Shown here: one piece after another, positions 20,753 through 39,116 of the stretch
Layout of the letters: each line of letters begins with the position of its first letter
Position numbering within the stretch: position 1 is the first letter of the stretch
Assembly (NCBI GenBank): GCA_017463765.1
Contig: JAFTON010000098.1
Span: 1-55,187, forward strand
DNA: 55,187 bases
From: Clostridia bacterium
Lineage (GTDB): Bacteria; Bacillota; Clostridia; Oscillospirales; CAG-272
Direction of reading: 5' to 3'
Position numbers and translations under genes: made by a program
The notes under the pieces: generated by a model
Seen by the model: the letters and a program-made list of their open reading frames with translations, nothing else
Databases searched by the model: none
Told to the model about the DNA's origin: nothing

Positions 20753-20798
20753 TACTCACAATTTGAGTATTGACATTTACTCAATTATTGAGTATAAT
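20753..20798 (+). promoter_or_regulatory. consensus sigma-A promoter overlapped by two TACTCA-N5-TGAGTA palindromes
   Basis: TTGACA 20770-20775, 17 nt, TATAAT 20793-20798; palindromes at 20753-20769 and 20778-20794. Confidence 0.85.
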
Positions 20799-20844
20799 TA
20801 TCTTATGGCAAAGCCAAAAAAAACAATATGGAGGTTTTTATAAC

Positions 20845-23800
20845 ATGAAAAAAAGAATAATGATTGTTTTTATTATTATCCTTACACTGACTTTTGTCTC
20901 TTGCGATATTATTAAAGATAATCTAACCACTGACGGAACAAAAGGATTACCCGCACCAACAGAATTGCGTGTAGAGGAAGGGTACATTATTTGGAATCCT
21001 GTAGAATTTGCCATTAAATATACAATTTGCATTGACGGAAGAGAGTATTTTTGCGATGAAAACAAATATCCTCTCTCCAACATTAAAGACGGTGAACACA
21101 TCGTAAAAGCGAAAGCAAACGGAGATGGGATAATATACGATACCTCTCCTTTTTCGGAAGAGTTTAAAATAAATATTGTTGAGGGAGCTCTTGCAAATAC
21201 AGGTTTTTATTCACAGTTTGATGAGCTAACAATGCAAGAATCATTTCTCGGTTACGGTTTTGATGTAATAAATTCTTCTGTACTTTATGACAAGGTTGTA
21301 AAAACGTCTTCTCCAATATTCAACACCGATGAGTTGATGAATCTTAGACTATTAAAAGTAGATTCAAAAAGCAGTTCTGTTTCTGAGGTACAAAGCGAAG
21401 AAATTGATTCCTTTATGGAAGAGTGGAATTCCAGTCTAAATGTAAAAGTTTCTTGGGGCAGAAAAAAGATAGGTGGAAGTGTAAAAGTTAACACCGCATT
21501 TTCAGGAGGAAGCTCTACTGCAAAATCGAAATACTTCCACTGTATTACTTTTAATAATCAAAAATTTTACATTGTAATGCAAGGAACGACAGACGAGTAT
21601 AGATCCATGCTTTCTAATGGATTTGAAAAGGATTTATATTCAGATATGTCTCCGGCAGAATTATTCAATAAATATGGAACTCATTTTATTACCAGTGCCA
21701 TTATGGGTGGTAAAATAAACTCCTATTATCTCTACACAAGCGAAAAAGAAACAAGTTTTTACGACATTAGTACCCGTGTATCCACCAGCGTCCGTGCATG
21801 GGCAGCAAAAACAAACGTTTCTGTCAACGGTGGATATAAAACAGAAGCCGAAAGTCAAAGTATATATATAAAAAACACTCTCGAAATTCTCGGTGGAGGA
21901 GATTTTGGCTTTAAAAGCGACGAAGATATTAATAGATACTACGCCGATTGGGAGAAATCATTGAACGATCACCCTTCTTTAATAGGAATCAAAGACTCTG
22001 GATCGCTTTGGCCAATTTGGGATTTGATAGATCCAAGTAAAGATACCCGAAGTGATTATACTTGGATTGATGAAAACGGAGAGGAACGTACCGGGTCACG
22101 AGCACAGCAACTTCAAGGTTATTTTATGAAATACGGTGTTGACAATTACAACATACTTGCGGCAAACGCAGGGATACCGGAGATTATTCAACCAGAATCG
22201 ATAAATAATATACTTGTTAATGGGAAAGAACCTATCAACGGTGTATATGAGGTGTTTGCAGGAGCAAGCAATCGCATTACATTTAGTGTTACACCTGAAA
22301 CCGCTGTTGGATATAGCAAAAATATCAGACTTAGCGCACCTAGCAACTATGCCTCGATAAGCGATGACAATACAGAAATTATTATTGAGTCGTTCACTCC
22401 TGCAAACGAAGTAATTAGTATAGTTGTTTCCGCTGGAGATGTAAAGGAAACAATAAAAGTAAAAGTAATAAAAACATATAACGTTGATTTCGTAACAAGC
22501 TTTGACGATGTAACTGTCGAAAATCCTTATAAGTATCAAGGATTGAACTATGGATACCAGATTATCACCCCACCAACACTTTTAAATATGCCTATTGAAT
22601 ACAATCTCGTAGGCTGGTATAAAGATCCTTATTTCATAGAAGAATTTTTATTTGGAATCGATCCAGTGGTTGACAACATAACCTTGTACGCAAAATGGGA
22701 AATAAAAAGCTCGTCAATTCATTTTGTAACAAATATTTCTACTTATGAAATTGATCCAATTAAAGTAAACTTTGGAGAACAAATACAGTTCAACTTAGAG
22801 CCTTCTTTCGACGGGTATATCTTCAATGGATTCTATTCAGATAAACAATTAACTCAACCATTTGATTTCAACACAGCCATTTATCAAGATACAAGTATTT
22901 ACTTGAAATGGAGTTTCGAAGTATATTCGATATTCTTTAAGGTTGATGGGGAAACCGTATACACAGATACTTATTCAATAAATGATAAAAATGTTTTGCT
23001 TCCCGACGTTCCTGCTAAATTAGGTTATTTTGGTGTATGGGAATCTTTCGAACTAACATCTGGTGATATTATTGTTAATGCAATATATGAAGAAAAAGAA
23101 ACTTATACTGTAATCTTCAAAAACAATGAAAGTATAATAAAAACAGAAACATATAATGCTGATATAGGAATAACGTTGCCTACCTTAATCGATGAAAAAT
23201 ATCCAATGTATAATCATTTTTTAGGCTGGTACGAAAATGATAAGCCGTTTGTAAACGATATAGCCACAAATCCCAGGGATCTTGTTCTTAATGCGCATTG
23301 GAATCTTTGCACGGTTTATACCGATATGGCATCAACAAGTCACAACGTTAATAACCGTGTTATCATTGATTGGCGCAACGAAGTATTTACTGATTTTGAA
23401 GAAGCTACAGGAAGCTCTATAATTACAGTAAACAATACTTCATCCGAACTAATTTTGATTGGCAATCCCGATGTAGTTTATTCTAATCTTGCTATTAACT
23501 TCGCAGATTTTGAAGAAAATCAAGAGTTTACGCTGCGTTTTATTGATTTCAACTTTATAACCAATCAATCAGATGCTATCAAGCCTGTTGACACTGATGA
23601 CGGAATGATTCTTTTTATCGAAGCAACTGGTAAATGCTCAATTGAAACTACTTATGCAGGTGGTAATATTATTACAGGCTTTATCAACACCGTAAACCTA
23701 AGCGGTGACGGCGAGATGATTATTACTGCAGGTGATGGAGCAAACGGGGCAAAAGGATGGACTCCAGGAAAAAGTGATACCGGAAACGGTGGAACAGGAG

Positions 23801-24267
23801 GCACTGGCAACTCAGGAGGAACAGGTATCTCCTGCAATAATGTTGTTTTCGGTTCAAATATTACAATAACCATATATGCAGGAGATGGAGGCCGTGGCGG
23901 AAATGGCGGAAACTCAGTAAATAAATACTGGGGATCTGAAAACGATGGTGGAACCGGTGGTGCCGGTGGCACTGGTGGTATTGCGGTGAAAGCTGTAACC
24001 ATGATTGTTAATGATACTGCAACCGTTTCATTATATGGTGGTAATGGCGGAAACGGCGGCTCTGGAGGATATAGGGATACTAGATTTGGTAATGGTAATC
24101 TTGGATCTGGAGGATCAGGAGGAAATGGTAACACTGCTATTTCCTCAGATACAGAAATAATTGGATCTCCAATTGTCAACAATGGTACATCGGGTTCTTC
24201 TGGTAGTATCGGAGGAAATTGGCACAGTCAAGATGATTATTACAACACATATTATTGGTGGAATTGA
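20845..24267 (+). CDS. MACPF (perforin-like) domain lipoprotein with InlB-B/Listeria-Bacteroides-type repeats and Gly-rich C-terminus
   Basis: GGAGG RBS and ATG 20845; signal peptide ending FVS-C; LGYGFDV and signature YGTHFITSAIMGG (21673-21711); GWY..D...F.F...V..NITLYAKW repeats; GGxGG repeats at the end. Confidence 0.85.
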   Translation: MKKRIMIVFIIILTLTFVSCDIIKDNLTTDGTKGLPAPTELRVEEGYIIWNPVEFAIKYTICIDGREYFCDENKYPLSNIKDGEHIVKAKANGDGIIYDTSPFSEEFKINIVEGALANTGFYSQFDELTMQESFLGYGFDVINSSVLYDKVVKTSSPIFNTDELMNLRLLKVDSKSSSVSEVQSEEIDSFMEEWNSSLNVKVSWGRKKIGGSVKVNTAFSGGSSTAKSKYFHCITFNNQKFYIVMQGTTDEYRSMLSNGFEKDLYSDMSPAELFNKYGTHFITSAIMGGKINSYYLYTSEKETSFYDISTRVSTSVRAWAAKTNVSVNGGYKTEAESQSIYIKNTLEILGGGDFGFKSDEDINRYYADWEKSLNDHPSLIGIKDSGSLWPIWDLIDPSKDTRSDYTWIDENGEERTGSRAQQLQGYFMKYGVDNYNILAANAGIPEIIQPESINNILVNGKEPINGVYEVFAGASNRITFSVTPETAVGYSKNIRLSAPSNYASISDDNTEIIIESFTPANEVISIVVSAGDVKETIKVKVIKTYNVDFVTSFDDVTVENPYKYQGLNYGYQIITPPTLLNMPIEYNLVGWYKDPYFIEEFLFGIDPVVDNITLYAKWEIKSSSIHFVTNISTYEIDPIKVNFGEQIQFNLEPSFDGYIFNGFYSDKQLTQPFDFNTAIYQDTSIYLKWSFEVYSIFFKVDGETVYTDTYSINDKNVLLPDVPAKLGYFGVWESFELTSGDIIVNAIYEEKETYTVIFKNNESIIKTETYNADIGITLPTLIDEKYPMYNHFLGWYENDKPFVNDIATNPRDLVLNAHWNLCTVYTDMASTSHNVNNRVIIDWRNEVFTDFEEATGSSIITVNNTSSELILIGNPDVVYSNLAINFADFEENQEFTLRFIDFNFITNQSDAIKPVDTDDGMILFIEATGKCSIETTYAGGNIITGFINTVNLSGDGEMIITAGDGANGAKGWTPGKSDTGNGGTGGTGNSGGTGISCNNVVFGSNITITIYAGDGGRGGNGGNSVNKYWGSENDGGTGGAGGTGGIAVKAVTMIVNDTATVSLYGGNGGNGGSGGYRDTRFGNGNLGSGGSGGNGNTAISSDTEIIGSPIVNNGTSGSSGSIGGNWHSQDDYYNTYYWWN

Positions 24268-28254: not shown

Positions 28255-28440
28255 ATGGCTAAATGCAGTATCTGCGGTAAGGGCGTTGTTTTCGGACATA
28301 ACGTGTCTCACTCCAACCGTAAGACCAACAGAACCTGGAAGCCCAATATCCGTAAGGTTAAGGCTGTAGTTAACGGAACCAATACTACCGTTTCCGTTTG
28401 CTCCCGTTGCCTTCGTTCCGGAAAGATCGAGCGCGCTTAA
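28255..28440 (+). CDS. rpmB: 50S ribosomal protein L28 (Cys-containing, zinc-ribbon type)
   Basis: AKCSICGK, GHNVSHSNRKTNRTWKPN, VCSRCLRSGK. Confidence 0.96.
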   Translation: MAKCSICGKGVVFGHNVSHSNRKTNRTWKPNIRKVKAVVNGTNTTVSVCSRCLRSGKIERA

Positions 28441-28447
28441 AGGATTT

Positions 28448-28478
28448 AAAAAACTCTGCTTGTAAGGCAGAGTTTTTT
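28448..28478 (+). terminator. rpmB terminator
   Basis: AAAAACTCTGC / GCAGAGTTTTTT. Confidence 0.8.
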
Positions 28479-28499
28479 AATTATTCTGACAAAAACAAA

Positions 28500-29210
28500 A
28501 TGAAAACATTAATTGTAGATAACAGGATTTCAGAAAAATGTGAGAGAGCCCTTATTAAAGAGGGACACTCCCTTATAAAGCTGCCGAAAGATCCCAGCTT
28601 AAGCGAGGCTGTGTCTGCCCATCCAGATACGGTTCTCTTTTATGCAAACGGTGAAATAATCACCACTGCAGACTACTGTGATGCAGCAGCCTACGTTTTC
28701 AGCGATATCAGGGAAATAAATCCAAAGATAAAAATCAGCTTTACCGACGACATACGCAGCGACAGATATCCTGATGAGTGCATTATGAATGCGCTGGTAA
28801 TCGGGCAAATGATATTCTGTAAAAGCGACAGCATATCCGATGGTATAGTTGATTATGCAAGACGAAACGGATATAAGATAATACACACAAATCAAGGCTA
28901 TCCTGCCTGCTCTGTTCTCGCTTTTGGCAATTGTGCTATTACTGCGGACCACGGTATTGCTGATATACTGCGAGAAAATGGCATCAGAGTGACCTTGATA
29001 AGTCAGGGTGGTATCTCCCTGCCCCCATACGAATACGGCTTTATCGGTGGTGCAAGTGGGGTTGTGGGGAGACGCGTTTACTTCTTCGGTGATATAGGAA
29101 AGCACCCCGACAGCGAGACGCTATGCCAAGCTATCATTTCTGAGGGCTTTATTCCCTTTTCCCTATCAGATGAGGAGCTACGTGACTTCGGTGGAATTAT
29201 CGCGCTTTAA
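28500..29210 (+). CDS. conserved clostridial protein, DUF6873 / amidinotransferase (GME)-fold-like
   Basis: HPD, YP..C..N, QGY..CS, ITAD.GI, GFIGGASG and D.GGI pattern; ATG 28500. Confidence 0.7.
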   Translation: MKTLIVDNRISEKCERALIKEGHSLIKLPKDPSLSEAVSAHPDTVLFYANGEIITTADYCDAAAYVFSDIREINPKIKISFTDDIRSDRYPDECIMNALVIGQMIFCKSDSISDGIVDYARRNGYKIIHTNQGYPACSVLAFGNCAITADHGIADILRENGIRVTLISQGGISLPPYEYGFIGGASGVVGRRVYFFGDIGKHPDSETLCQAIISEGFIPFSLSDEELRDFGGIIAL

Positions 29211-30224
29211 AAACGCCATGGTGCTCACGGCAATCACGGGCAGAATTATCATTCCTAAAAATCCAAACAGTGAAAAACCAATATATAGCATCATCAGCGT
29301 AACTATTGGGTGAAGATCAAGGCTTTTACCAACGATTTTCGGCTCTATGAGCTGTCTGATAACAGTGCTCACAGCAAAGAGTATTATCAAACCCACGCCA
29401 AGAAAAGCATTGCCTTCAATAAACGAAATCATGCTCCAGGGAATAAGCACTGTACCGACGCCTATTACAGGCAAAAGATCCAGTAGTGCAACCAGCATAG
29501 CGATCACGAACGCATGATCTACCCTGAGAATCCATAATCCTGTCAATATTACGGTATAGGTTATCAGCATTATTAAAGAATAGGATGAAATATATTTTTT
29601 TATTACCAGAAGAGTGGTGTTCTTCAGCCTGATAATCGTGGCAGTCAGCTTTTCCGGTAGGACAGAGGAAATAAAGCTTGCTATTTTATCGTAATCAAGA
29701 GCGAAATATACAAGAGAAATCAGGGTAACAAGAATAAAGAAGAGGAACCCGGGAAGCCCGGAGGCAAAGGTAGCTATCCATTCTGCAAGTCGCGACAGCC
29801 AATCCGAGACAAGCTCACCCACGGCAGAGCTGATTTTCGAAGCCAGGTCGGGGGAAAATAGTCCACTGAAAATCGGAACCTCCGATGAGAACAAACCAAA
29901 GAGCATACTGTATAGCCTGTTTCCTTCGTCCATATCGGCGAGAAAACGCCAGAGCGCAGTTGATACCCTCCATACAAGAAATGCAACGAGAGAAAAGAAA
30001 ATAAGCGTTGCTACAATAGACGTAATCAACCTTATCACCTTTTCGGGTACATTTATTTTAGCAGAAAGGATTCTGGCAGGTTTTACCGTAAGGGTGGCTA
30101 TTATTAATGCAATAATAAAGGGCAACAGAACCGGCAGGACATAGTCTATGAATGCGACGGTCAGGATCAGTGAGGAGAGTATTCCTACCGAAATAAGTGA
30201 AAAACGGCTTAGCTTCTCTTTCAT
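29178..30224 (-). CDS. ytvI: sporulation integral membrane protein YtvI (AI-2E family)
   Basis: LLPFIIA, LDLLPVIGVGTVLIPW, RQLIEPKIVGKSLDLHP. Confidence 0.85.
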   Translation of the reverse strand: MKEKLSRFSLISVGILSSLILTVAFIDYVLPVLLPFIIALIIATLTVKPARILSAKINVPEKVIRLITSIVATLIFFSLVAFLVWRVSTALWRFLADMDEGNRLYSMLFGLFSSEVPIFSGLFSPDLASKISSAVGELVSDWLSRLAEWIATFASGLPGFLFFILVTLISLVYFALDYDKIASFISSVLPEKLTATIIRLKNTTLLVIKKYISSYSLIMLITYTVILTGLWILRVDHAFVIAMLVALLDLLPVIGVGTVLIPWSMISFIEGNAFLGVGLIILFAVSTVIRQLIEPKIVGKSLDLHPIVTLMMLYIGFSLFGFLGMIILPVIAVSTMAFLKRDNSTEVT

Positions 30225-30305: not shown

Positions 30306-30776
30306 ATGGTAGTAATTGAAATGGAAAACGGTGGTAAAATCGAGCTTGAGCTCTACCCTGAGGCTGCACCTAAGACGGTGGCAAATTTCCTTAAGCTTGT
30401 AGGCGAAGGCTTTTACGACGGACTTATCTTCCACAGAGTAATTCCCGGCTTTATGATTCAGGGTGGCGATCCTCAGGGCACAGGTATGGGTGGCGCAAAG
30501 GAAAATATTGTGGGCGAGTTTAAGGCTAACGGCTTTGATAATCCTATAAAGCATGTTCGTGGCGTTATCTCCATGGCAAGAGCATACAATCCTAACTCTG
30601 CATCCTCTCAGTTCTTTATCATGCATGCAAATGCACCCCATCTTGACGGTCAGTATGCAGCCTTTGGTAAGGTTGTAAGCGGAATGGAGGTTGTCGATGA
30701 AATTGCATCTATCCCCACCGATTACAGCGACAGACCTAAGATTGCTATGAGAATGAAAAAGGTTTACGTTAAGTAA
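30306..30776 (+). CDS. cyclophilin-type peptidyl-prolyl cis-trans isomerase
   Basis: APKTVANF, FHRVIPGFMIQGGDP, ISMARA, SQFFI, LDGQYAAFGKV. Confidence 0.95.
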   Translation: MVVIEMENGGKIELELYPEAAPKTVANFLKLVGEGFYDGLIFHRVIPGFMIQGGDPQGTGMGGAKENIVGEFKANGFDNPIKHVRGVISMARAYNPNSASSQFFIMHANAPHLDGQYAAFGKVVSGMEVVDEIASIPTDYSDRPKIAMRMKKVYVK

Positions 30777-30802: not shown

Positions 30803-30836
30803 AACGGCAGAAGCGAAGAGCCTCTGCCGTTTTTTT
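30803..30836. terminator. terminator between convergent genes
   Basis: AACGGCAGA / TCTGCCGTT followed by T-run. Confidence 0.75.
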
Positions 30837-30857: not shown

Positions 30858-32426
30858 TTACTTTTTAAAAATACCGTTGAAGATTTCCTCAAGTCTTCTG
30901 AGGAAGAGGAGGATTGCCTTAGCAATCTTCTGAATAAGAGTCATCTCCTTTACAGGCTCATCATCACCGTTATCACCATCTGCAGGTCCGTCGATAATTC
31001 CATCACCACCCTGGTTGCCGTTGCCACCACTTACGGAGTGCCATGCGTTGTTATCATCAGCACTGCCCTCGTTGTAAAGGCACTCGTGACCGTTGCTGAG
31101 ATATACCTTGCCGTCGGTAGGAATGATAAGGTCGGGAGTCTGCTTAAGAGTGTCTACCTGCCAATCGCCACCGTTGGTGAAGAGGATACCCCAATAGCCA
31201 GCAGGAACGGTTGCGTAGTAGTAGCCGTCCTCACCCTGCTCCATAGGAGTACCGGGGAAAGCAAACGCCTCAGTACCGTCAACGTTCCAATAATAGATCC
31301 ATACCTCACCCCAGCCTGCATCATCCTTAACGTAAACAGTTACGTCCTCGGTGGTATCTTCGGGAGGAATGGGAGGAACATAGTCCTTAATATCGCCCCA
31401 CTGAGAAGTTCCGTTATCGTAAATCGCACCGTCCCCGGGAATTACAAGGTCTGCGCTCTGGGTGCCGTTACCGTCGTTGAATACTACAGAATCGCATACG
31501 GAAGGAAGCTCGATAAAGTAAAGAAGCTTTTCGTCATCCCATTCCATTTCAAGACCGGGCCATGTTGTATAAGCAACGTCATTGCTGCCACCCTCAACCC
31601 ATGCGTGTACGAAAACGGTGTTCCAATATGCGCTGTCGCCAACGTAGATGGTTATCTTATCACAGTTCTCAAAGTCTACGGTAGGAGCAGAAGGAAGATT
31701 GGGGTCTGCGCCTGTAGATGCAGAAAGGACATGTCCGACCGTACCTGTTGCAGGATCAAAGGTAATAGTAACGTTCTGCTCCTCGGTAAGAGAGAATGAA
31801 TAATTACCGAACTCGCCGTTACCCTGAGTACCCCAGGACTGATTCCAGCTGTGATCAAGAGCAACCTTACACTCATAATCGCCTGCAGGAATACCTGTAA
31901 AGGTCTTTTCATAAAGGCCGGTTTCTGAATTGAGAGTCATATCATTGTATGTATTGGAAACATCCCACTCAGAACCGCAGAGACCTGCAACACCTGCAAC
32001 AGTGTAGGTGCCCTGAGAGCTACCCTGATTTCCACCGTTAGGATCGCTCTTCCAATGGCCGTTACCACTTGCCGTATCGATTATATAGGTATCACCGGCA
32101 ACAAGAGTAAGGTCACCCGACTGAGCAATCTTATAGTCCCAACTATAATCCGAACCCTGAGGAAAGGCAACAAATATGATATTCGAAATACCGGCAGGCA
32201 GAGTGCATTCGTAGATGCCGTCGCCATCAGAATCTGTCATATCAAACCATTGTTCCCCACCGTCCCAGGTATAAATAGCAAATGAGGTATTCTCGGTGCT
32301 CCATTTGCCTGGATCAAGATATACTTTTGATCCCTCTGCAGCATGTGCAGTGAGCGTAACCATGCTTACAAGCAAGGTCATTACAACCAGCAATGCAAGC
32401 AAGAACTTACGAGTATTGTTTTTCAT
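30858..32426 (-). CDS. secreted non-catalytic multi-module starch-binding-type protein A (CBM26-like x3 plus X25-like), C-terminal amphipathic helix
   Basis: Signal peptide ending AHA; modules W..V..HAW...WPG..M, YTVAGVAGLCGSEWD..N.MT..G.YEK.F..IPAGDYECKV...W..SWG; no GH13 motifs seen. Confidence 0.75.
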   Translation of the reverse strand: MKNNTRKFLLALLVVMTLLVSMVTLTAHAAEGSKVYLDPGKWSTENTSFAIYTWDGGEQWFDMTDSDGDGIYECTLPAGISNIIFVAFPQGSDYSWDYKIAQSGDLTLVAGDTYIIDTASGNGHWKSDPNGGNQGSSQGTYTVAGVAGLCGSEWDVSNTYNDMTLNSETGLYEKTFTGIPAGDYECKVALDHSWNQSWGTQGNGEFGNYSFSLTEEQNVTITFDPATGTVGHVLSASTGADPNLPSAPTVDFENCDKITIYVGDSAYWNTVFVHAWVEGGSNDVAYTTWPGLEMEWDDEKLLYFIELPSVCDSVVFNDGNGTQSADLVIPGDGAIYDNGTSQWGDIKDYVPPIPPEDTTEDVTVYVKDDAGWGEVWIYYWNVDGTEAFAFPGTPMEQGEDGYYYATVPAGYWGILFTNGGDWQVDTLKQTPDLIIPTDGKVYLSNGHECLYNEGSADDNNAWHSVSGGNGNQGGDGIIDGPADGDNGDDEPVKEMTLIQKIAKAILLFLRRLEEIFNGIFKK

Positions 32427-32468
32427 AATATTTTCCTTTCTTTTATGTATTTATAAATACTCTTATAC

Positions 32469-32539
32469 ATTATATCACAGCAAAAAAAATATTACAATAT
32501 ACTTTTAAAGAAATAAGTATTTTTGTTAAAGTTGAACAA
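32469..32539 (-). promoter_or_regulatory. promoter TTGTAA-17-TGnTATAAT plus upstream 17-bp box (copy 1)
   Basis: -10 at 32474-32469, -35 at 32497-32492, box TTGTTAAAGTTGAACAA at 32523-32539. Confidence 0.75.
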
Positions 32540-32558
32540 AATAATTTTTAATTTTTAT

Positions 32559-32591
32559 AAAAAAAGCCCTTGCGTCATATGACGCAAGGGC
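32559..32591 (-). terminator. intrinsic terminator of protein B gene
   Basis: Perfect palindrome GCCCTTGCGTCATATGACGCAAGGGC followed by T7 on the minus strand. Confidence 0.82.
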
Positions 32592-32627
32592 CAAAAATGT
32601 TAGTTTACTTTTTATTAATTAAGATTA

Positions 32628-35600
32628 TTATTTCTTAACGAAAAAGTTCTTGAAGAAATCAGCAATCTTAGCGAAGAACTCGGTAATAGCCTTAATAATC
32701 TTCTGAATAAGAGTGAGCTCGGGCTCTACAGGATTCTCATCTACAGGAGGAACGTAGTTAGGATCTTCCTCACCACACTCGCACTTGCCCTCAACGAACT
32801 CATGCTCGTGAGCAGGCTTTTCGGAACGGGTGATAGTGTAGGTGTACTCGCCAACCTCGCAGATATAGTTACCTGCAGCATCTATGCCATCATATCTGAA
32901 GCCAACAAGATATGTACCTGCAACAAGCTCTACCTCGATAGAATCGGTAATAGCGCCTGTGAGATTGTCAACATTCCATACGAAGGGAGCTGTATCGGGA
33001 ACTGTTGCCTGATTGGGATAATCGGGCCAGATGAAGAATGTAAGAGGAGAAAGACCGGAGAATGTATAAATGCCATCCTCTTCAACGGTGAGGTAAAGCC
33101 ACTCATAACCCTTATCCTTAAGAGCCTGATTAAGAACGTACTTGTTCTCGCCAACAACGATAGTGTTAACTGCGGGAAGCTCTACGTCGTCGCCAAGCTT
33201 CTCAGCCTTAACGGTGAACTCACCGGTAACGCCTTCCTTACCTACGCATACGTAGTAGGTGCCTGCAGTAAGCTCAGCAGTACCAGTCCACTTGCAAAGG
33301 CAAGCGTCAGCGGAAGCAAGGTTCATCTCGGAGTAAATGTAGCAGTTGAGATCTGCAGAAGAAACGGTGTAGATACCGTCCTCAGCAACTACGAACTCAA
33401 GCCAAGCGATTGCACTGCCGGTAAGGTTAACAACAGAACCGTCGATAGTAACGGTGTTATCACCAAGCTGGAGTGCGGGAAGCTCGGGCTCCTCAACGTC
33501 GCCACCGCCGATAGCGGTCTTCTCAACGTTAACGGTTGCAACACCTGCGGTTGCGGGGCCGGCAGTAAATGCTACGCATACGTAGTAGGTGCCAGCATCA
33601 AGCTCGGTTCCGGTAACTGCCGCGTATGCGGAGTCGTAAACGAGAGCAAGGATGCCCTCACCGGTGAAGGTGTAGTTAGCCTTCTCGGTTACCTCGAAGG
33701 GAGCCCATACGATGTAATAGCCATAATCGTTGGAAAGTGCATCGGTGATAAGAAGCTTGTTAGCACCGATTACAAGAGTGTTAACCCAAGCGGACTTTGT
33801 AACAGCAACGTTGAACTCGCCAACTGCACCGTTACCAACGCAGATGAGGTAGTTGCCTGCCTCAAGGTTAGCCTTACCTGTGCCGCCGCAAAGGAGAGCT
33901 GTGCCGTCTGCAGAGAAGATCATTGCAAGAGCACCGTTGTCGCCTACGAAGCTATAGAAAGCGTTCTCGTCTGCAACGAAGGGAACCCACTCGATAGGAA
34001 GGTTGTAAGCGTTTACAAAGTTACCGCTAACAACGATCTTGTTGGTATCGCCAACTACGAGAGTATTAACGTGAGGAGGAACGTAATTAGGATCCTCTGC
34101 ACCACACTCGCACTTACCGTTAACGAAGTTGTGCTCGTGAGCGGGAGCATCCTGAGTAAGAGCAACCTTGTAGAAATAGTTGGTTCCACCCTTGTGGCCA
34201 AGATAATATGTACCTGCTGCTTCAATTTCGAAGGTAGTGATGTAAAGTCCATCCTTTACGGAGTCGGTGCTAGAACTATGAATAGCAGTAATAGCAGAAC
34301 CGTCAAATGTATAAATCTCTATATTTCTACCATCGGAACCGCACTTCCACCAAACTGTAATGGTAGCAGGACCATTGGTAGTGAACATAATGCTTCGAGA
34401 TACATCTCCACTTTCAACCTTTGTATTACCATTGAAGGAAAGACGAAGTTCGGATTCATAACCATCCTCAAATGTTGCTTTGGAGCTCTGAGTCTTACCC
34501 TTATCACCAAAGATAAGAGTGAAGAATTCATTAGAACCTACCTTAAGAGTATCGCCCTTAGAAACATCGCCCTCGTTTATAGTAGGAAGATCCTTACTTT
34601 CAAATACATTGGTAATCTTGTCGGAAACGTCAGGAGCTACGTAGTCAGGATCTTCCTCACCACATACGGAGCACTTACCTTCTGCGAAGGAGTGAGCGCC
34701 TGCTACCTTAACGTTCATCAGGTTAGTAAGCTGAGTCTGAGCCTCGTCAGTCCAAGCAGTACCACAGTAAGAGCAGTACCAGTATTCAACGTTACCGTCA
34801 TAGGACTGGCAATCGGTACCAGCCTTAGCCTCTACGTGTACTACGTCGTGCTTTGCATCGGGATTGGAAACCTCGTAGCACTCCTGACAAACAGGATCAC
34901 AGGGATAGAAGTAGCTATGTACGTGAGGAGGATCAGAGATGGTGAATGTGATCTTCTCTGTTGTGCTGTCGAAAGCAATTGTAAGCATTTTTCCTGCGGG
35001 AACCTCAACCCATGCATTATCGTCGGTCTGACCTGCAGCTGCACCACCCCAGCACTTAGTCCAGCCAAGATCAAGGCAAACCTTGAGGTTGGGCCAGATT
35101 GTTGCATCACCCTTGTTTACGTAAGAAATAGTCCAAAGACCGGTTTCCTTGTCGTATGTCATCTTGTTAGCAGTATTAGTGGGATCCCATGTTGTTCCAA
35201 AGAGATCAGCATTATCGCCTGCTATGGTGTAAACGGGAGCAAATCCACATACAGAGCACTTGGAGCCATCGTCGAACTTGTGGCCAAGAGCCTCGCCCTG
35301 AGACTGACCACACTTAGAGCATATCTGAGGCTTGTCGCAGGTTGCATCGGACCAATCGTGCTCGCACTCTACAACAGGAAGCTCAACATTAACGCTTACG
35401 GTAGTGCCTTTAAGTGTAATGGTTACAGTGCTACCTGCATCAGCAACAGTGTAAAGCTTATCAGCAGAGGGATATGCAGTACCCCAAGCGTGATCGCGAA
35501 CAACCTTAAACGCATAAGAGCCTGCTGAAACCTTTTCATATACCTTAGTATAGGTACCGGTTTCTGCATCATAGGTCATATCGTTTGCGGTGTTACCGGT

Positions 35601-36206
35601 ATCCCACTCGGTACCAAGATGTGCACCCGAGCCAGCTACGGTGAAGGTAGCCTGCACGTTACATCTGGTGCAGAGGTGATCGGAATTGAAGGAGTGACCA
35701 AGAGCGGAAACTACGGGGTCACCACAATCAAGACAGGTCTGAGCTGTAGTACAGGTTGCTTCAGCACTGAGATTGGTGTGAAGGCAGGTAGAACCGTAGG
35801 TAGACCAGGTTCCTCCACCACTGTCCCAGGTACCTTCCTTAACGGTGAAATGATTTGCACCGGAGGTAGGGATGGTAAGGTCTGCGGTCTGGTTCCACTT
35901 GTTATTCCAGTTGTTAGCTGCTGCAGAGGGATTCATTCTGCAGAAGATAACGTTAGGATATACCTTATCGGTAGGAACCTTAACCTCATATACGCCGTCG
36001 CCGTCAGCGTCAGTCATACTAACCCAGGTTTCGCCGTTGCCGAAGAAGTAAGCCGCGAAACGAGCATTGCTCTGCTTCCAATTCGCATTGGGAGTGAGAT
36101 AAAGTGTCTCGGGCTGGCTTGCAGCACTTGCAAAGAGGGTTGCAACGCTCATCATCATTGCAAGAACAATAACGAGAGCAACAAGAATTTTGCGTGTGTT
36201 TCTCAT
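32628..36206 (-). CDS. large secreted modular protein B (CBM26-like, two X25-like, Cys/His spacers, four unknown beta repeats), C-terminal amphipathic helix
   Basis: Signal peptide ending ASA; LYLTPNANW..ARFAAY..W..MTD.DGDGVY..IFCRMNP..WNQT module; biased codon usage consistent with high expression. Confidence 0.75.
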   Translation of the reverse strand: MRNTRKILVALVIVLAMMMSVATLFASAASQPETLYLTPNANWKQSNARFAAYFFGNGETWVSMTDADGDGVYEVKVPTDKVYPNVIFCRMNPSAAANNWNNKWNQTADLTIPTSGANHFTVKEGTWDSGGGTWSTYGSTCLHTNLSAEATCTTAQTCLDCGDPVVSALGHSFNSDHLCTRCNVQATFTVAGSGAHLGTEWDTGNTANDMTYDAETGTYTKVYEKVSAGSYAFKVVRDHAWGTAYPSADKLYTVADAGSTVTITLKGTTVSVNVELPVVECEHDWSDATCDKPQICSKCGQSQGEALGHKFDDGSKCSVCGFAPVYTIAGDNADLFGTTWDPTNTANKMTYDKETGLWTISYVNKGDATIWPNLKVCLDLGWTKCWGGAAAGQTDDNAWVEVPAGKMLTIAFDSTTEKITFTISDPPHVHSYFYPCDPVCQECYEVSNPDAKHDVVHVEAKAGTDCQSYDGNVEYWYCSYCGTAWTDEAQTQLTNLMNVKVAGAHSFAEGKCSVCGEEDPDYVAPDVSDKITNVFESKDLPTINEGDVSKGDTLKVGSNEFFTLIFGDKGKTQSSKATFEDGYESELRLSFNGNTKVESGDVSRSIMFTTNGPATITVWWKCGSDGRNIEIYTFDGSAITAIHSSSTDSVKDGLYITTFEIEAAGTYYLGHKGGTNYFYKVALTQDAPAHEHNFVNGKCECGAEDPNYVPPHVNTLVVGDTNKIVVSGNFVNAYNLPIEWVPFVADENAFYSFVGDNGALAMIFSADGTALLCGGTGKANLEAGNYLICVGNGAVGEFNVAVTKSAWVNTLVIGANKLLITDALSNDYGYYIVWAPFEVTEKANYTFTGEGILALVYDSAYAAVTGTELDAGTYYVCVAFTAGPATAGVATVNVEKTAIGGGDVEEPELPALQLGDNTVTIDGSVVNLTGSAIAWLEFVVAEDGIYTVSSADLNCYIYSEMNLASADACLCKWTGTAELTAGTYYVCVGKEGVTGEFTVKAEKLGDDVELPAVNTIVVGENKYVLNQALKDKGYEWLYLTVEEDGIYTFSGLSPLTFFIWPDYPNQATVPDTAPFVWNVDNLTGAITDSIEVELVAGTYLVGFRYDGIDAAGNYICEVGEYTYTITRSEKPAHEHEFVEGKCECGEEDPNYVPPVDENPVEPELTLIQKIIKAITEFFAKIADFFKNFFVKK

Positions 36207-36248
36207 AAATATTTCCTTTCTTTATTTTATTTTGTTCACGCTATTGTA

Positions 36249-36319
36249 ATTATAGCATAATTATTTATTATTTACAATATATTTTTTGTAAATGTTTGTT
36301 TTTTGTAAGAAATGCACAA
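36249..36319 (-). promoter_or_regulatory. promoter TTGTAA-17-TGnTATAAT plus upstream 17-bp box (copy 2)
   Basis: -10 at 36254-36249, -35 at 36277-36272, box TTGTAAGAAATGCACAA at 36303-36319. Confidence 0.75.
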
Positions 36320-36396
36320 TAAATTTTGAGTTTTTAGCTTTGTAGGGGTTAGAAGTTGGTTAAAATGTGAAATATGTTCATATTTTATTTATAAAC

Positions 36397-36429
36397 AAAA
36401 ATCCCCTGCACCCATAGGAGTGCAAGGGA
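36397..36429 (-). terminator. intrinsic terminator of protein C gene
   Basis: TCCCTTGCAC...GTGCAGGGGA stem followed by T-run on the minus strand. Confidence 0.7.
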
Positions 36430-36439
36430 CTCGAAAATA

Positions 36440-37981
36440 TTACTTCTTAAAGCCTGCAAAAAGGTTCTTGAACCAAGCGCTGATATTAGCGAAGAAATCG
36501 GTAACAGCCTTGAGAATCTTCTGCACAAGAGTAAGCTCGCCGGGCTGCTCGGGCTCGGGATCTGTGGGAGTTTCGGGATCGGGATTAGGATCGGGATCGG
36601 GATTAGGATCGGGATCGGGGGTAGGATCAGGATCGGGGGTAGGATCAGGATCAGGGGTAGGATCGGGATCGGGATCGGGATCTACGGGAGCCTGAGGCGC
36701 TGTAACAGTAGCCGAAGGAATGCCATCCTTAAAGCTGATGGTTACGGTGCTGCCGTCCTCTGCAACGTTGATATAGCAGTTATCTGCACTACCATTTTCA
36801 CCGTAGGATACGGTCCAGGTCTTGTTCTCGGTAACCTTGAAGTGATACTCGCCTGCGAAAACGTTCTCATAAACCTTAACGTATGCGCCTGTCTCCTCAT
36901 CGTAAACAAGGAGGTTGGTCTCATCACTTGCATTCCAGCTTGTGCCAAAGAAGTTTACGCCACCGGGTATATACTCACCGTTAGCGTCCATCATAACGTC
37001 ACCTGCGACGATATAAACCTTATCGGTATCGGGGGTAGGATCGGGGTCTACGGGGGTATCCGAAGCCGTTACGGTTACAGAAGGAACGTTATCTTTAAAT
37101 GTAATTGTAACGGTACTGCCCGCCTGTGCAACGTTAATGTAGCAGTTATCTGCGCCACCGTTTGCACCGTAGGATTCGTTCCAGGACTTGTCAACGGTAA
37201 CCTTAAAATCATATTCACCTGCAGCAACTCCCGTATAAACCTTCACGAAGCAGCCCAGCTCTGCATCATATTCAAGCTTATTTGCCTCATTGGTAACATC
37301 CCAGCTTGTGCCAAAGATGGTGGCATTGTCACCTGTCTGATACTCGCTGTTGATCTGGTGAACGTCACCAGCGATAATGTAAGTAGCATAAGCATCGCAG
37401 TTAGCGCAAGCACCGTCTGCACCGTAAGTATGGCCTGTCGCAAAGATTGGCGCAGTATAAGTCTCTCCACACTTGGAGCAGAGGTGAGAAATCTCTCCGT
37501 TCTCGGTACAGGAGGCAGGAGTAATAACACTTCCCTCACCTGAGGGAGAATGAATGCACTCACCTGTTTCGATAAGAGACCAGACTCCATTAGTACCGGA
37601 ATCCCACTGACCCTCGTTGATAGTATAGTGGTTATTCTTACCGTCATACTTAAGGTCACCTGTCTGATTCCACTTATTATTCCAATTGTTATCGGAAGTA
37701 CCGGGATTCATTCTGCAGAAGATGATGTTTTCAACGCCTGCGGGAATAACGCATGCATATACACCGTCGCCGTCAGGGTCGGTCATATCAAACCATGTGT
37801 TACCGATATCCCAGGTGTATGCAGCAAAGCGAGCGCCATCTATCTTCCAGTTAGAATTGGGTGTCAGGAAGATGGTTGTATCACCTGTGGTTTTTGCCGC
37901 GAAGGCAGTAATTGTTGTCATGCTCATCAGAAGTGTAAAAACTACAAGAAGAGCAACTAAAATTTTGCGTGTGCTTTTCAT
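36440..37981 (-). CDS. secreted starch-binding-type protein C (CBM26-like plus two X25-like, PD linker), C-terminal amphipathic helix
   Basis: Signal peptide ending AFA; paralogous to proteins B and D; two YIIAGDV...SW...N.L.YD.E.G..VKVY..V.AGEY.FKV...W..SYG modules. Confidence 0.78.
   Translation of the reverse strand: MKSTRKILVALLVVFTLLMSMTTITAFAAKTTGDTTIFLTPNSNWKIDGARFAAYTWDIGNTWFDMTDPDGDGVYACVIPAGVENIIFCRMNPGTSDNNWNNKWNQTGDLKYDGKNNHYTINEGQWDSGTNGVWSLIETGECIHSPSGEGSVITPASCTENGEISHLCSKCGETYTAPIFATGHTYGADGACANCDAYATYIIAGDVHQINSEYQTGDNATIFGTSWDVTNEANKLEYDAELGCFVKVYTGVAAGEYDFKVTVDKSWNESYGANGGADNCYINVAQAGSTVTITFKDNVPSVTVTASDTPVDPDPTPDTDKVYIVAGDVMMDANGEYIPGGVNFFGTSWNASDETNLLVYDEETGAYVKVYENVFAGEYHFKVTENKTWTVSYGENGSADNCYINVAEDGSTVTISFKDGIPSATVTAPQAPVDPDPDPDPTPDPDPTPDPDPTPDPDPNPDPDPNPDPETPTDPEPEQPGELTLVQKILKAVTDFFANISAWFKNLFAGFKK
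36574..36687 (-). repeat. degenerate 6/18-bp tandem repeat encoding a (PDPDPT/PDPDPN)n linker
   Basis: Repeated GGATCG/GGATCA/GGGTAG units. Confidence 0.9.
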
Positions 37982-38019
37982 AAAAGACCCTTTCTTTTTT
38001 TATTTTTTGTACCATATGG

Positions 38020-38090
38020 ATTATAACACATTTGGGTTATTTTTACAATATGTCTTCGAAAAAATGTTTACTTTTGTAAATTGTGCACAA
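38020..38090 (-). promoter_or_regulatory. promoter TTGTAA-17-TGnTATAAT plus upstream 17-bp box (copy 3)
   Basis: -10 at 38025-38020, -35 at 38048-38043, box TTGTAAATTGTGCACAA at 38074-38090. Confidence 0.75.
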
Positions 38091-38113
38091 AAGGATTTGT
38101 AATTACAATACAC

Positions 38114-38145
38114 AAAAAGCCCCCGTATTTACTTAATACAGGGGC
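38114..38145 (-). terminator. intrinsic terminator of protein D gene
   Basis: GCCCCTGTATT...AATACGGGGGC stem followed by T5 on the minus strand. Confidence 0.7.
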
Positions 38146-38165
38146 AAAACGTATGCTTTTGTAAA

Positions 38166-39116
38166 TTATCTTTCATTTCCACCGAAAAGACTTCTGAAAA
38201 AGTTCACTATTGCGAGCCATATTTTTTGGAAGAAGCTTAGCTTTTCCTCAGACTCACTTCCGTCGAAGTTGTCCGAATCATCAGAAGAATCGGATTGATC
38301 GTCATCGGGGTTTTCCACGGGGGTGTCGATAACCATTGCTGCGCAAGTAACCTTGCCGTCCTTAAAGCTGATTACAACCGTGCTGCCGTCCTTATCAACC
38401 TTAAGATAGCAATTCTCACCGTCATTACCGTAAGAAACGTCCCATGACTTATTTTCAGCTATCTTGAAGTGATACTCGCCTGCAGCCACGTTCTCATAAA
38501 TCTTAACGTAACAGCCGGATTCCTCGTCGTAGGTCATTCTGTTGTTTTCATCCGAAACATCCCATTTTGAAACGAACAGAGTATCATTATCACCCTTCCT
38601 GTAGCTATCGCCATCCTTCATTACATTGCCTGCAACAATATAGAACAGCTCCTCGCCACACTTTATGCAAACATCATTTTCATAGGAATGGGCGCAGGCA
38701 TTGCTGTCAAATACAGACCAGCGTCCCTCTCCGTTGCTCCATGCACCTGTGGCGATGGTATAATGATTTTTGGTTCCGTCAAATTTCAGATCATCCGTCT
38801 GATTCCAGGTTGTGCTCCAGCCATTGTGAGTTTCACCGGGATCAAGACGGCAGAAAATAATGCTTGTATACCCCGAAGGAAGAATTCCTTCATAAACGCC
38901 GTCACCGTCAGAGTCCTTCATCTCTATCCACAGATAAGAACCACTCTCATCCCAGACATACATAGCGAAACGGGCGTTATCAGACCTCCAGTTTGAGTTT
39001 GGAGTAAGGTAAATCTCCACGTCACCGTCAGCAGCATAGGCTGTAAATCCTATGAGACCGATAATCAAGGTCAGAATAGCTAAAAGAGTCAACAAAGAAT
39101 AACGAATGCTTTTCAT
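38166..39116 (-). CDS. secreted starch-binding-type protein D (CBM26-like plus X25-like), C-terminal amphipathic helix
   Basis: Signal peptide ending AYA; YLTPNSNW..NARFAMYVW...IFCRLDP..WNQT module; acidic linker; ends LSFFQKIWLAIVNFFRSLFG. Confidence 0.78.
   Translation of the reverse strand: MKSIRYSLLTLLAILTLIIGLIGFTAYAADGDVEIYLTPNSNWRSDNARFAMYVWDESGSYLWIEMKDSDGDGVYEGILPSGYTSIIFCRLDPGETHNGWSTTWNQTDDLKFDGTKNHYTIATGAWSNGEGRWSVFDSNACAHSYENDVCIKCGEELFYIVAGNVMKDGDSYRKGDNDTLFVSKWDVSDENNRMTYDEESGCYVKIYENVAAGEYHFKIAENKSWDVSYGNDGENCYLKVDKDGSTVVISFKDGKVTCAAMVIDTPVENPDDDQSDSSDDSDNFDGSESEEKLSFFQKIWLAIVNFFRSLFGGNER

Follow-up and report, generated by a model that had tools for sequence, protein, structure and literature searches.

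How are secreted starch-binding proteins held at the cell in a bacterium whose draft genome yields no sortase, dockerin or SLH domain? The question is raised by four tandem open reading frames (ORFs) of 522, 1192, 513 and 316 amino acids (aa) on the minus strand of a 55,187-nt contig (JAFTON010000098.1, positions 1 to 55,187, the whole of which is referred to as the window) from a Clostridia bacterium (Oscillospirales, CAG-272; assembly GCA_017463765.1). All four encoded proteins end in a similar amphipathic peptide, here termed the tail. In the reading favored here, to which we assign a probability of roughly 0.6, the tail is a monotopic anchor lying in the plane of the membrane, like that of penicillin-binding protein 5 (PBP5), and was recruited to surface glycan-binding proteins and enzymes. 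It is favored because the tail is C-terminal on secreted proteins, presents an aromatic face of 180 degrees with Lys/Arg edges, follows an acidic linker and resembles the tails of PBP5-type enzymes and, to a modest degree, the proven anchor of E. coli PBP5. A preliminary description of the locus had placed the in-plane anchor beside two other readings, a docking helix and a sorting tag; both are retained below as improbable alternatives.

Position and physical character of the tail

Translation places the tail directly before the stop codon in each of the four ORFs, and peptides and coordinates agree exactly with those first described. The tail covers positions 30861..30947 in the gene of the 522-aa protein (30858..32426), 32631..32720 in that of the 1192-aa protein (32628..36206), 36443..36538 in that of the 513-aa protein (36440..37981) and 38169..38243 in that of the 316-aa protein (38166..39116); these and all further features of the array lie on the minus strand. 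The first three tails, of 29, 30 and 32 aa, represent a longer variant with about 10 additional residues. The fourth, of 25 aa, is a short, PBP5-like variant that ends in F-G-G-N-E-R.

The acidic or Pro-rich linker reported earlier is present immediately before the tail in all four proteins. It is acidic and rich in Gly, Asp and Asn in the 522-aa protein (residues 453-493, 30948..31070) and short, acidic and Pro-containing in the 1192-aa protein (residues 1146-1162, 32721..32771), with boundaries drawn by eye in both. The 513-aa protein has about 65 residues of Pro/Asp/Thr repeats (residues ~417-481, 36539..36733), a stretch that is marked by a low-complexity Pfam match to Trypan_PARP at residues 423-487, and the 316-aa protein has an acidic Ser/Asp linker (residues 264-291, 38244..38327). 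At the other end, all four proteins start with a signal-peptide-like sequence, recognized by eye from a Lys/Arg-rich start, a hydrophobic core and an A-x-A site. The putative signal peptide comprises residues 1-29 of the 522-aa protein (32340..32426; A-H-A followed by A, cleavage predicted by the AXA rule) and, with likewise predicted cleavage sites, residues 1-28 of the 1192-aa (36123..36206), 513-aa (37898..37981) and 316-aa proteins (39033..39116; AlphaFold2 models a helix at residues 2-22).

Between these ends, Pfam detects the starch-binding X25 domain in all four proteins. The 522-aa protein combines X25 (residues 150-227) with two CBM26 starch-binding stretches (the best at residues 364-428), the 1192-aa protein has two X25 stretches and Cys-rich inserts, the 513-aa protein has two X25 domains, and the 316-aa protein has one X25 and an N-terminal CBM-like domain. 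An AlphaFold2 model of the 316-aa protein, based on an alignment of 10 sequences, has a mean predicted local distance difference test score (pLDDT) of 61.7 and consists of two beta domains, a linker at residues 264-294 with a pLDDT below 50 and a separate helix at residues 295-311.

For the four window tails, the best hydrophobic moment over 18 residues ranges from 0.56 to 0.69, the latter value belonging to the 522-aa protein; no more than 0.6% of 500 shuffled versions of a tail reach its value. Their 19-residue Kyte-Doolittle maximum lies between 0.92 and 1.18. The 17 seed tails of the broader profile introduced below have hydrophobic moments of 0.45-0.85 and Kyte-Doolittle maxima of no more than 1.35. 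Because these maxima are low, the tail is predicted to be a surface-seeking helix and not a membrane-spanning one, and the statement that the window tails are no transmembrane helices stands, with a maximum of at most 1.18.

It is accordingly very improbable that the long variant of 30-32 aa forms a membrane-spanning tail-anchor helix, with its charges perhaps paired in an oligomer and the terminal K-K in the cytoplasm. The terminal K-K of the long tails resembles the stop-transfer end of LPXTG signals, and their length would suffice to cross a bilayer. However, they remain below the usual Kyte-Doolittle threshold for membrane-spanning segments of about 1.6, and the 4-8 charged residues per tail are spread along one face. 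Moreover, the short variant stops after about 20 residues, and the E. coli counterpart is known to lie in one leaflet.

In an alignment of 148 matching database sequences, in which all figures are partly circular since the profile itself picked the sequences, one Phe is found in 148 of 148 sequences, an Ile in 145 and an Ala in 135; the hydrophobic columns fall on a single arc of 180 degrees, are 83-100% hydrophobic and consist mostly of Phe, Trp and Ile, Lys/Arg residues mark the edges of the arc (89%, 60% and 59%), and the columns of the polar face vary more. Across 154 domain rows, the net charge from the helix to the end of the protein is +2.8 on average and positive in 86%, and the 10 residues before the helix have a mean charge of -3.6 and are negative in 95%. 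The 40 residues upstream of the tail are enriched in Pro (12.3% versus 3.4% in the rest of the same proteins), Glu (12.6% versus 6.9%) and Asp (12.3% versus 6.9%).

Among solved structures, the best match of the tail profile is the human cathelicidin LL-37 (E 1.7e-4, 16 aligned residues), which is the C-terminal piece of a precursor. It shows the same pattern of a Phe/Ile face and a Lys/Arg/Asp face and is counted among cationic amphipathic peptides that are oriented parallel to the surface of the bilayer (PMC6023007). LL-37 is, in contrast to the tail, a free animal host-defense peptide, and the likeness is almost certainly convergent, that is, LL-37 is a physical analogue and not a relative. 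No Pfam or NCBIfam model lies on the tails of the four window proteins, no Pfam model covers the tail among the best stretches listed for 63 database proteins, and no NCBIfam model covers it in 12 database proteins, the sole touch being that of phenol-soluble modulin epsilon at E 0.26. A search of the ESM Atlas with the tail gave no usable match. A literature search, which left out most subscription journals, returned no relevant paper either for strings of the tail motif or for amphipathic-helix anchoring of starch- or carbohydrate-binding proteins.

The LL-37 match and the weak modulin match could suggest that the tail is cleaved from its protein and set free as a membrane-active peptide of the LL-37 or phenol-soluble modulin type, acting on competitors or membranes. 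This is extremely unlikely: no conserved cleavage site or dedicated protease is seen, the tail also sits on housekeeping PBP5-type enzymes, and its passengers are large functional surface proteins rather than pro-domains.

Distribution of the tail

Within the genome (2.0 Mb in 142 contigs, 80.7% complete), 20,538 six-frame ORFs of at least 40 aa were searched with a hidden Markov model (HMM) of the four window tails. Two further proteins were found at E 8e-6 and 4e-4, with the next match at E 0.42. When the two new tails were added to the HMM, six proteins matched at E ≤8e-14, and the next match followed at 0.044. The profile E-values of the long window tails in the genome are 1.6e-14 (522-aa protein), 1.2e-15 (1192-aa protein) and 1.4e-16 (513-aa protein). 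One of the two additional proteins is a pectate lyase of 1280 aa that carries CBM77, the other a Pel9A-like beta-helix protein of 1359 aa; each begins with a signal-peptide-like sequence, contains a Pro/Asp linker and has the tail at its very end. To judge from these matches, the tail is a reusable module and not limited to the four window paralogues; the preliminary description had named a restriction to these paralogues as speaking against its reading, and the two pectate-lyase-type proteins and 222 database clusters (see below) show a wider occurrence. Among 1372 C-termini of ORFs of at least 200 aa, the six tails rank 2, 10, 11, 22, 41 and 71 by hydrophobic moment, and they stand out from the other C-termini by their Phe/Trp content. 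Weaker variants on contigs C133 and C28 carry the tail core followed by about 27 more residues.

For the wider search, a profile of 17 tails (A4) was compared with a library of 1.84 billion sequences, in which about 15 billion proteins clustered at 50% identity are each represented by one member per cluster. At E ≤0.001, 222 clusters matched, two of them at E ≤1e-10. An HMM scan had been expected to hit the C-termini of signal-peptide proteins, and this is what was observed. Among the best 150 of the 222 matches, the distance from the end of the match to the C-terminus is at most 5 residues in 124, at most 10 in 146 and at most 15 in 149, with a repetitive 2694-aa protein (P0001) as sole exception. 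A crude signal-peptide test was passed by 55 of the 83 matches of at least 250 aa, and the rest mostly look N-terminally cut.

Pfam domains were assigned for 63 of the 80 matches of 250-2100 aa. The most frequent families are X25 (21 proteins), Flg_new (9), Big_2 (8) and CBM77 (5), followed by pectate lyase (3) and BspA-type leucine-rich repeats (LRR; 3). CBM26, MucBP, SdrD_B, Metallophos, NAGPA and GHL10 also occur, and 15 proteins are without a family. The passenger domains that Pfam recognizes in these 63 matches are, as predicted from their families, of extracellular type only. The consensus of the preliminary description holds for the window, while that of the wider family differs from it and reads (E)-E-L-N-F-F-Q-(K/R)-I-(W/I)-K-A-I-x-D-F-F-x-K-(L/I)-F-G, in most cases with a few Lys after it.

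The pattern FFQ[KR]I[WF]xAI, searched in named genome records, gave 29 confirmed loci, in 28 of which the match lies at most 13 residues from the stop codon. Almost all of these records are metagenome-assembled genomes (MAGs) titled Eubacteriales, Oscillospiraceae, Acutalibacteraceae, uncultured Ruminococcus, Clostridia or Lachnospiraceae, and several genomes have three or four loci. One Staphylococcus agnetis record and one Anaerolineaceae MAG are also included.

At each taxonomic level, a sample of genomes was searched, many of them incomplete. Within the genus, 18 of 80 other genomes show the tail (E ≤0.001). At the level of the order, 12 of 400 other genomes matched a profile of 11 tails (A3, E ≤0.001); seven of these matches are C-terminal, and five were rejected as internal. 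The frequency was 7 of 400 genomes in the class and 5 of 400 in the phylum (both E ≤1e-4). The five internal matches of the order (L018, L021, L024, L027 and L028) lie far from a stop codon, and two other loci (L007 and L009) were discarded as tails for the same reason. In L018 (G200:C77), the tail-like motif is located inside a 2649-aa ORF, which could be a fusion, a read-through or a frameshifted gene. A 529-aa ORF fragment from the same order (L073, G092:C20) combines two different attachment modules, a dockerin at residues 405-457 and then a C-terminal tail-like helix.

The gene neighborhood of 40 tail loci contains no recurrent enzyme or receptor gene. Shared neighbors reflect housekeeping synteny only, namely thioredoxin-like, HAD, glutamate dehydrogenase and Crp-like genes.

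Relation to PBP5-type anchors and DUF1002 proteins

Profile A3 contains no penicillin-binding protein. Nevertheless, two of its C-terminal matches in the order-level search are D-Ala-D-Ala carboxypeptidases (Peptidase_S11 and PBP5_C) in which the match follows directly after PBP5_C. These two PBP5-type tails were included in profile A4, which is thereby partly seeded for this family. Outside the order, A4 detected seven PBP5-type enzymes (three from other orders, four from other classes; one is a PBP5_C-only fragment) and four DUF1002 proteins (three from other orders, one from another class). Each match is C-terminal except for that in one DUF1002 protein with 42 further residues, and in all PBP5-type matches the tail directly follows PBP5_C.

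In E. coli PBP5, the last 18 residues attach the protein to the outer face of the inner membrane, and the protein lacking them is soluble and non-functional, as reported in PMC2909392. According to the same source, the anchor must attach 'in a particular way', and an unrelated membrane-spanning helix fails to restore function. A preprint on pneumococcal DacA places the amphipathic helix of that enzyme at the N-terminus (10.1101/2025.04.08.647842); because this disagrees with the C-terminal location expected for it, the source was set aside. The three E. coli K-12 paralogues DacA, DacC and DacD were compared with the tail by ungapped placement of a 20-column core profile. In DacA, the best placement coincides with the last 20 residues (score -3.0, next best -29.9), of which 9 of 20 are identical to the consensus, and both sequences end in F-G. 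An end-anchored score as high as that of DacA is reached by 2 of 4243 genome ORFs of at least 100 aa, both of them true tails. The best placement in DacC lies 4 residues from the end, with a score that is reached by 16 of 4243 ORF ends, and DacD is not matched by the core profile. At the level of sequence, the likeness of the tail to the proven E. coli anchor appears real but modest, and that to the PBP5-type tails of Firmicutes is clear.

The anchors of PBP5 and PBP6 (DacA, DacC) and of their Firmicute carboxypeptidase counterparts share with the tail the location at the extreme C-terminus of a Sec-exported protein and an amphipathic helix of 19-20 residues, and the motif N-F-F-x-K-I-...-I-...-F-...-F-G appears co-linear with DacA. 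In contrast to these anchors, the tails of the window and the genome are carried by carbohydrate-binding modules, pectate-lyase-type enzymes and adhesin-like repeats instead of carboxypeptidases, they are preceded by a long acidic/Pro-rich linker, and their motif is far more uniform than among the E. coli paralogues, of which DacD remains unmatched. The passengers in the window are X25/CBM26 starch-binding proteins and not carboxypeptidases with Peptidase_S11 and PBP5_C. The tail module is of the PBP5 kind, yet the window proteins are not members of the PBP5 family. The PBP5-type enzyme of the genome itself (contig C100) has a shorter, divergent amphipathic end, and a second such enzyme runs off its contig.

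The same tail is found in six secreted DUF1002 proteins (PF06207; L056 from Staphylococcus agnetis, L063, L067, L068, L071 and L086), at the C-terminus directly after the domain and outside the Pfam model. Unlike the window proteins, they have a single conserved domain and no long linker. The six include the Staphylococcus agnetis and Lachnospiraceae MAG loci of the pattern search. Among 10 of the 15 papers that contain the term DUF1002, no title or abstract opening addresses how the protein is attached to the cell. The DUF1002 tail proteins make cultured Firmicutes available for studying the tail.

The very high conservation of single positions can also be read as the mark of a protein-protein helix that bundles with other tails into homo- or hetero-oligomers or docks on a specific membrane or wall protein, in the manner of a cohesin-dockerin assembly without dockerins. 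Four tail proteins encoded side by side and several copies per genome, for example five matches in G816, would suit such an assembly, as would the failure of an unrelated helix to replace the PBP5 anchor. The best structure match, LL-37, has many crystal entries, and those in the match list are presumably oligomers. This reading nevertheless appears unlikely. Coiled coils typically use Leu, Ile and Val, whereas the hydrophobic face of the tail consists mostly of Phe and Trp. No receptor-like gene recurs in the 40 loci, and the passengers are very diverse, with the same tail on PBP5-type enzymes, where it is a lipid anchor in E. coli. The predicted self-association of four copies of residues 468-513 of the 513-aa protein scored 0.08 against a mark of 0.32, in a prediction run without controls that carries no weight for or against this reading.

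Several points weigh against the in-plane anchor as well. The PBP5 matches in the class and the phylum are partly seeded by A4, and only the A3 result is free of seeding. The HMMER match to DacA is weak and confined to the first 12 positions (3.8 bits, with an E of 0.0024 for one sequence), and the likeness is weaker in DacC and absent from DacD. Membrane anchoring of the clostridial PBP5 homologues is itself assumed by analogy with E. coli. The additional residues (about 10) in three of the four window tails have no PBP5 counterpart, and the modeled tail helix has a pLDDT of only about 50-56. In addition, the conservation of Phe, Ile and Ala exceeds what generic membrane affinity would need and could point to a specific partner, with the reservation that the statistic is circular. 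Finally, the tail is a feature of part of the genus and not a general answer to its lack of sortase.

A further interpretation, which we regard as distinctly improbable, takes up the conservation in a different way. Here, the motif would be a sequence-specific address that is read by a conserved membrane component of Firmicutes, which would also position PBP5-type carboxypeptidases and DUF1002 proteins, and a sortase-less lineage of gut Clostridia would have transferred it to all of its surface proteins that bind or degrade glycans. If so, it would represent a third general route of Gram-positive surface display beside sortase signals and lipoproteins, and one with a receptor.

Under the favored in-plane anchor, the proteins would be exported by Sec via their N-terminal signal peptides. 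The last 20-30 residues would then fold into an amphipathic helix whose Phe/Trp/Ile face is buried in the outer leaflet of the cytoplasmic membrane, with the Lys/Arg edges of the helix binding anionic lipid head groups. The acidic Pro-rich linker is predicted to be disordered and may let the carbohydrate-binding or catalytic domains reach through the wall. In the window, the module would tether four non-catalytic starch-binding proteins to the cell surface, and elsewhere in the genome pectate-lyase-type enzymes. That the tail binds the membrane, the linker spans the wall and the starch-binding domains are displayed on the cell is what we infer.

The preliminary description had considered the tail a candidate novel signal. 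Its novelty does not extend to the kind of anchor, which is already known from PBP5, a match to a described anchor being what the description itself had named as speaking against it. The spread over different passengers stands, as does the lack of a Pfam or NCBIfam model. Four aspects appear to be new. The motif is conserved and lends itself readily to profile searches, and it has expanded in uncultured gut Clostridia. It also occurs on DUF1002 proteins and has spread to polysaccharide lyases, carbohydrate-binding modules and adhesin-like repeat proteins, where it follows linkers that presumably span the wall. Should the tail indeed anchor proteins in the membrane, it would single out a whole class of surface proteins for which current annotation has only the label 'secreted', including starch binders, pectate lyases and adhesin-like LRR and immunoglobulin-like (Ig) repeat proteins of uncultured gut Clostridia. 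It would tie the long-known but rarely generalized PBP5 anchor to many more passengers and to DUF1002, a conserved secreted family. The 20-residue profile could become a Pfam or NCBIfam model for the prediction of surface proteomes in metagenomes, and the tail, if it anchors as proposed, could serve as a small portable tag for surface display in Gram-positive hosts.

Surface attachment in the genus and organization of the gene array

The preliminary description had distinguished the tails from LPXTG, SLH and dockerin modules, and rightly so. In the genome (80.7% complete), the Pfam models for sortase, dockerin (PF00404) and SLH (PF00395) find nothing, and a scan for the LPXTG pattern gave a single match at the C-terminus of a polytopic membrane protein, which is no true signal. 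No NCBIfam model for signals of the exosortase and rhombosortase type (PEP-CTERM, GlyGly-CTERM) matched a tail at E up to 1 or 10, in a comparison that covered the signals and not their enzymes. Pfam detects sortase in none of 25 genomes from the genus, a large share of them more than 95% complete, compared with 15 of 16 genomes from other families of the order. Lipobox-like signal peptides are present in three of six GH13 ORFs in the genome (contigs C88 and C25), in enzymes of 536, 910 and 940 aa with the starts L-S-S-C, L-T-S-C and T-A-S-C. The starch-cleaving GH13 enzymes thus seem to be lipoproteins, anchored N-terminally, and the non-catalytic binders seem to use the C-terminal helix. Because no sortase, dockerin, SLH or LPXTG module was found and GH13 starts are lipobox-like, surface proteins of this organism seem to be attached to the membrane rather than to the wall. 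The proposed anchor would explain how polysaccharide-capturing proteins are retained on the cell in a genus without detected sortase, dockerin or SLH. The idea that the tail is a genus-wide substitute for sortase was rejected, given that only 18 of 80 other genomes of the genus show it.

The same data bear on the sorting tag, that is, a C-terminal signal that an enzyme would recognize and cut before joining the protein covalently to lipid or wall, in the manner of sortase, exosortase or rhombosortase. The tail has a comparable three-part layout, with the motif E-L-N-F-F-Q-K-I, a helix with a hydrophobic face and a basic K-K end, it is confined to the C-termini of secreted proteins, and no sortase was found in the genus. 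On the other hand, the helix is too polar to span the membrane (Kyte-Doolittle maximum ≤1.35), unlike known signals, and the lack of a recurrent neighboring enzyme in the 40 loci weakens this option. The tail is furthermore found on PBP5-type enzymes, in which it is a non-cleaved anchor in E. coli, and in distant classes it occurs on just two housekeeping-type families, unlike a dedicated sorting system. A sorting signal is therefore considered quite improbable.

Two known systems invite comparison at this point. With LPXTG/sortase signals, the tail shares the C-terminal position on secreted surface proteins, a preceding Pro-rich wall-spanning region and the basic end, but it has neither an LPXTG-like motif nor a membrane-spanning stretch. 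The amylosome of Ruminococcus bromii, a gut member of the same broad group, is likewise reported to involve non-catalytic CBM26-type starch binders held at the surface. No dockerin was found in the genome studied here, in contrast, and attachment would be to lipid and not to a scaffold protein.

The four tail genes look like duplicated, separately transcribed units, because an identical promoter-like site precedes three of them and a strong terminator-like hairpin follows all four. The promoter-like site (TTGTAA-17-TATAAT with TG) is located 5' of the genes for the 513-aa (38020..38048), 1192-aa (36249..36277) and 522-aa proteins (32469..32497); it matches the consensus at 10 of 12 positions and is recognized in all three cases by consensus match only. 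Its identity, of the extended -10 type, before three of the four genes suggests that the promoter was part of the duplications. The hairpins lie 3' of the genes for the 316-aa (38119..38145, 11 pairs), 513-aa (36399..36432, 15 pairs), 1192-aa (32565..32592, 12 pairs) and 522-aa proteins (30803..30831, 12 pairs). In one run of a gut metatranscriptome, only short contigs were found on parts of 36574-38784, the best of 255 bases with one difference at 37160-37414; such data do not show transcription, and the tail-coding parts were uncovered in that run.

Cys-rich inserts are repeated between the carbohydrate-binding domains of the 1192-aa and 513-aa proteins, of L001 and of many database matches. 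Their pattern, roughly C..H...TCTE.G....C..CG....GH.F....C..CG, resembles small zinc-ribbon-like modules of extracellular proteins, and Pfam reports no family on them.

The array is adjoined by genes for a DUF6873 protein (28398-29210, plus strand) and an AI-2E family transporter (YtvI-like; 29178-30224, minus strand), and a cyclophilin is encoded nearby at 30306-30776. None of these neighbors recurs beside tail genes elsewhere, apart from cyclophilin in three loci. Also in the window, at 20770-24267 on the plus strand, is an ORF of 1165 aa whose product has a MACPF/perforin domain and a Listeria-Bacteroides repeat. This protein ends in a stretch that is rich in Gly/Ser and Tyr/Trp, and it has no tail. 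Its ORF falls within the sole region of low GC content in the window (36% at 20-24 kb versus about 45%) and may be horizontally acquired.

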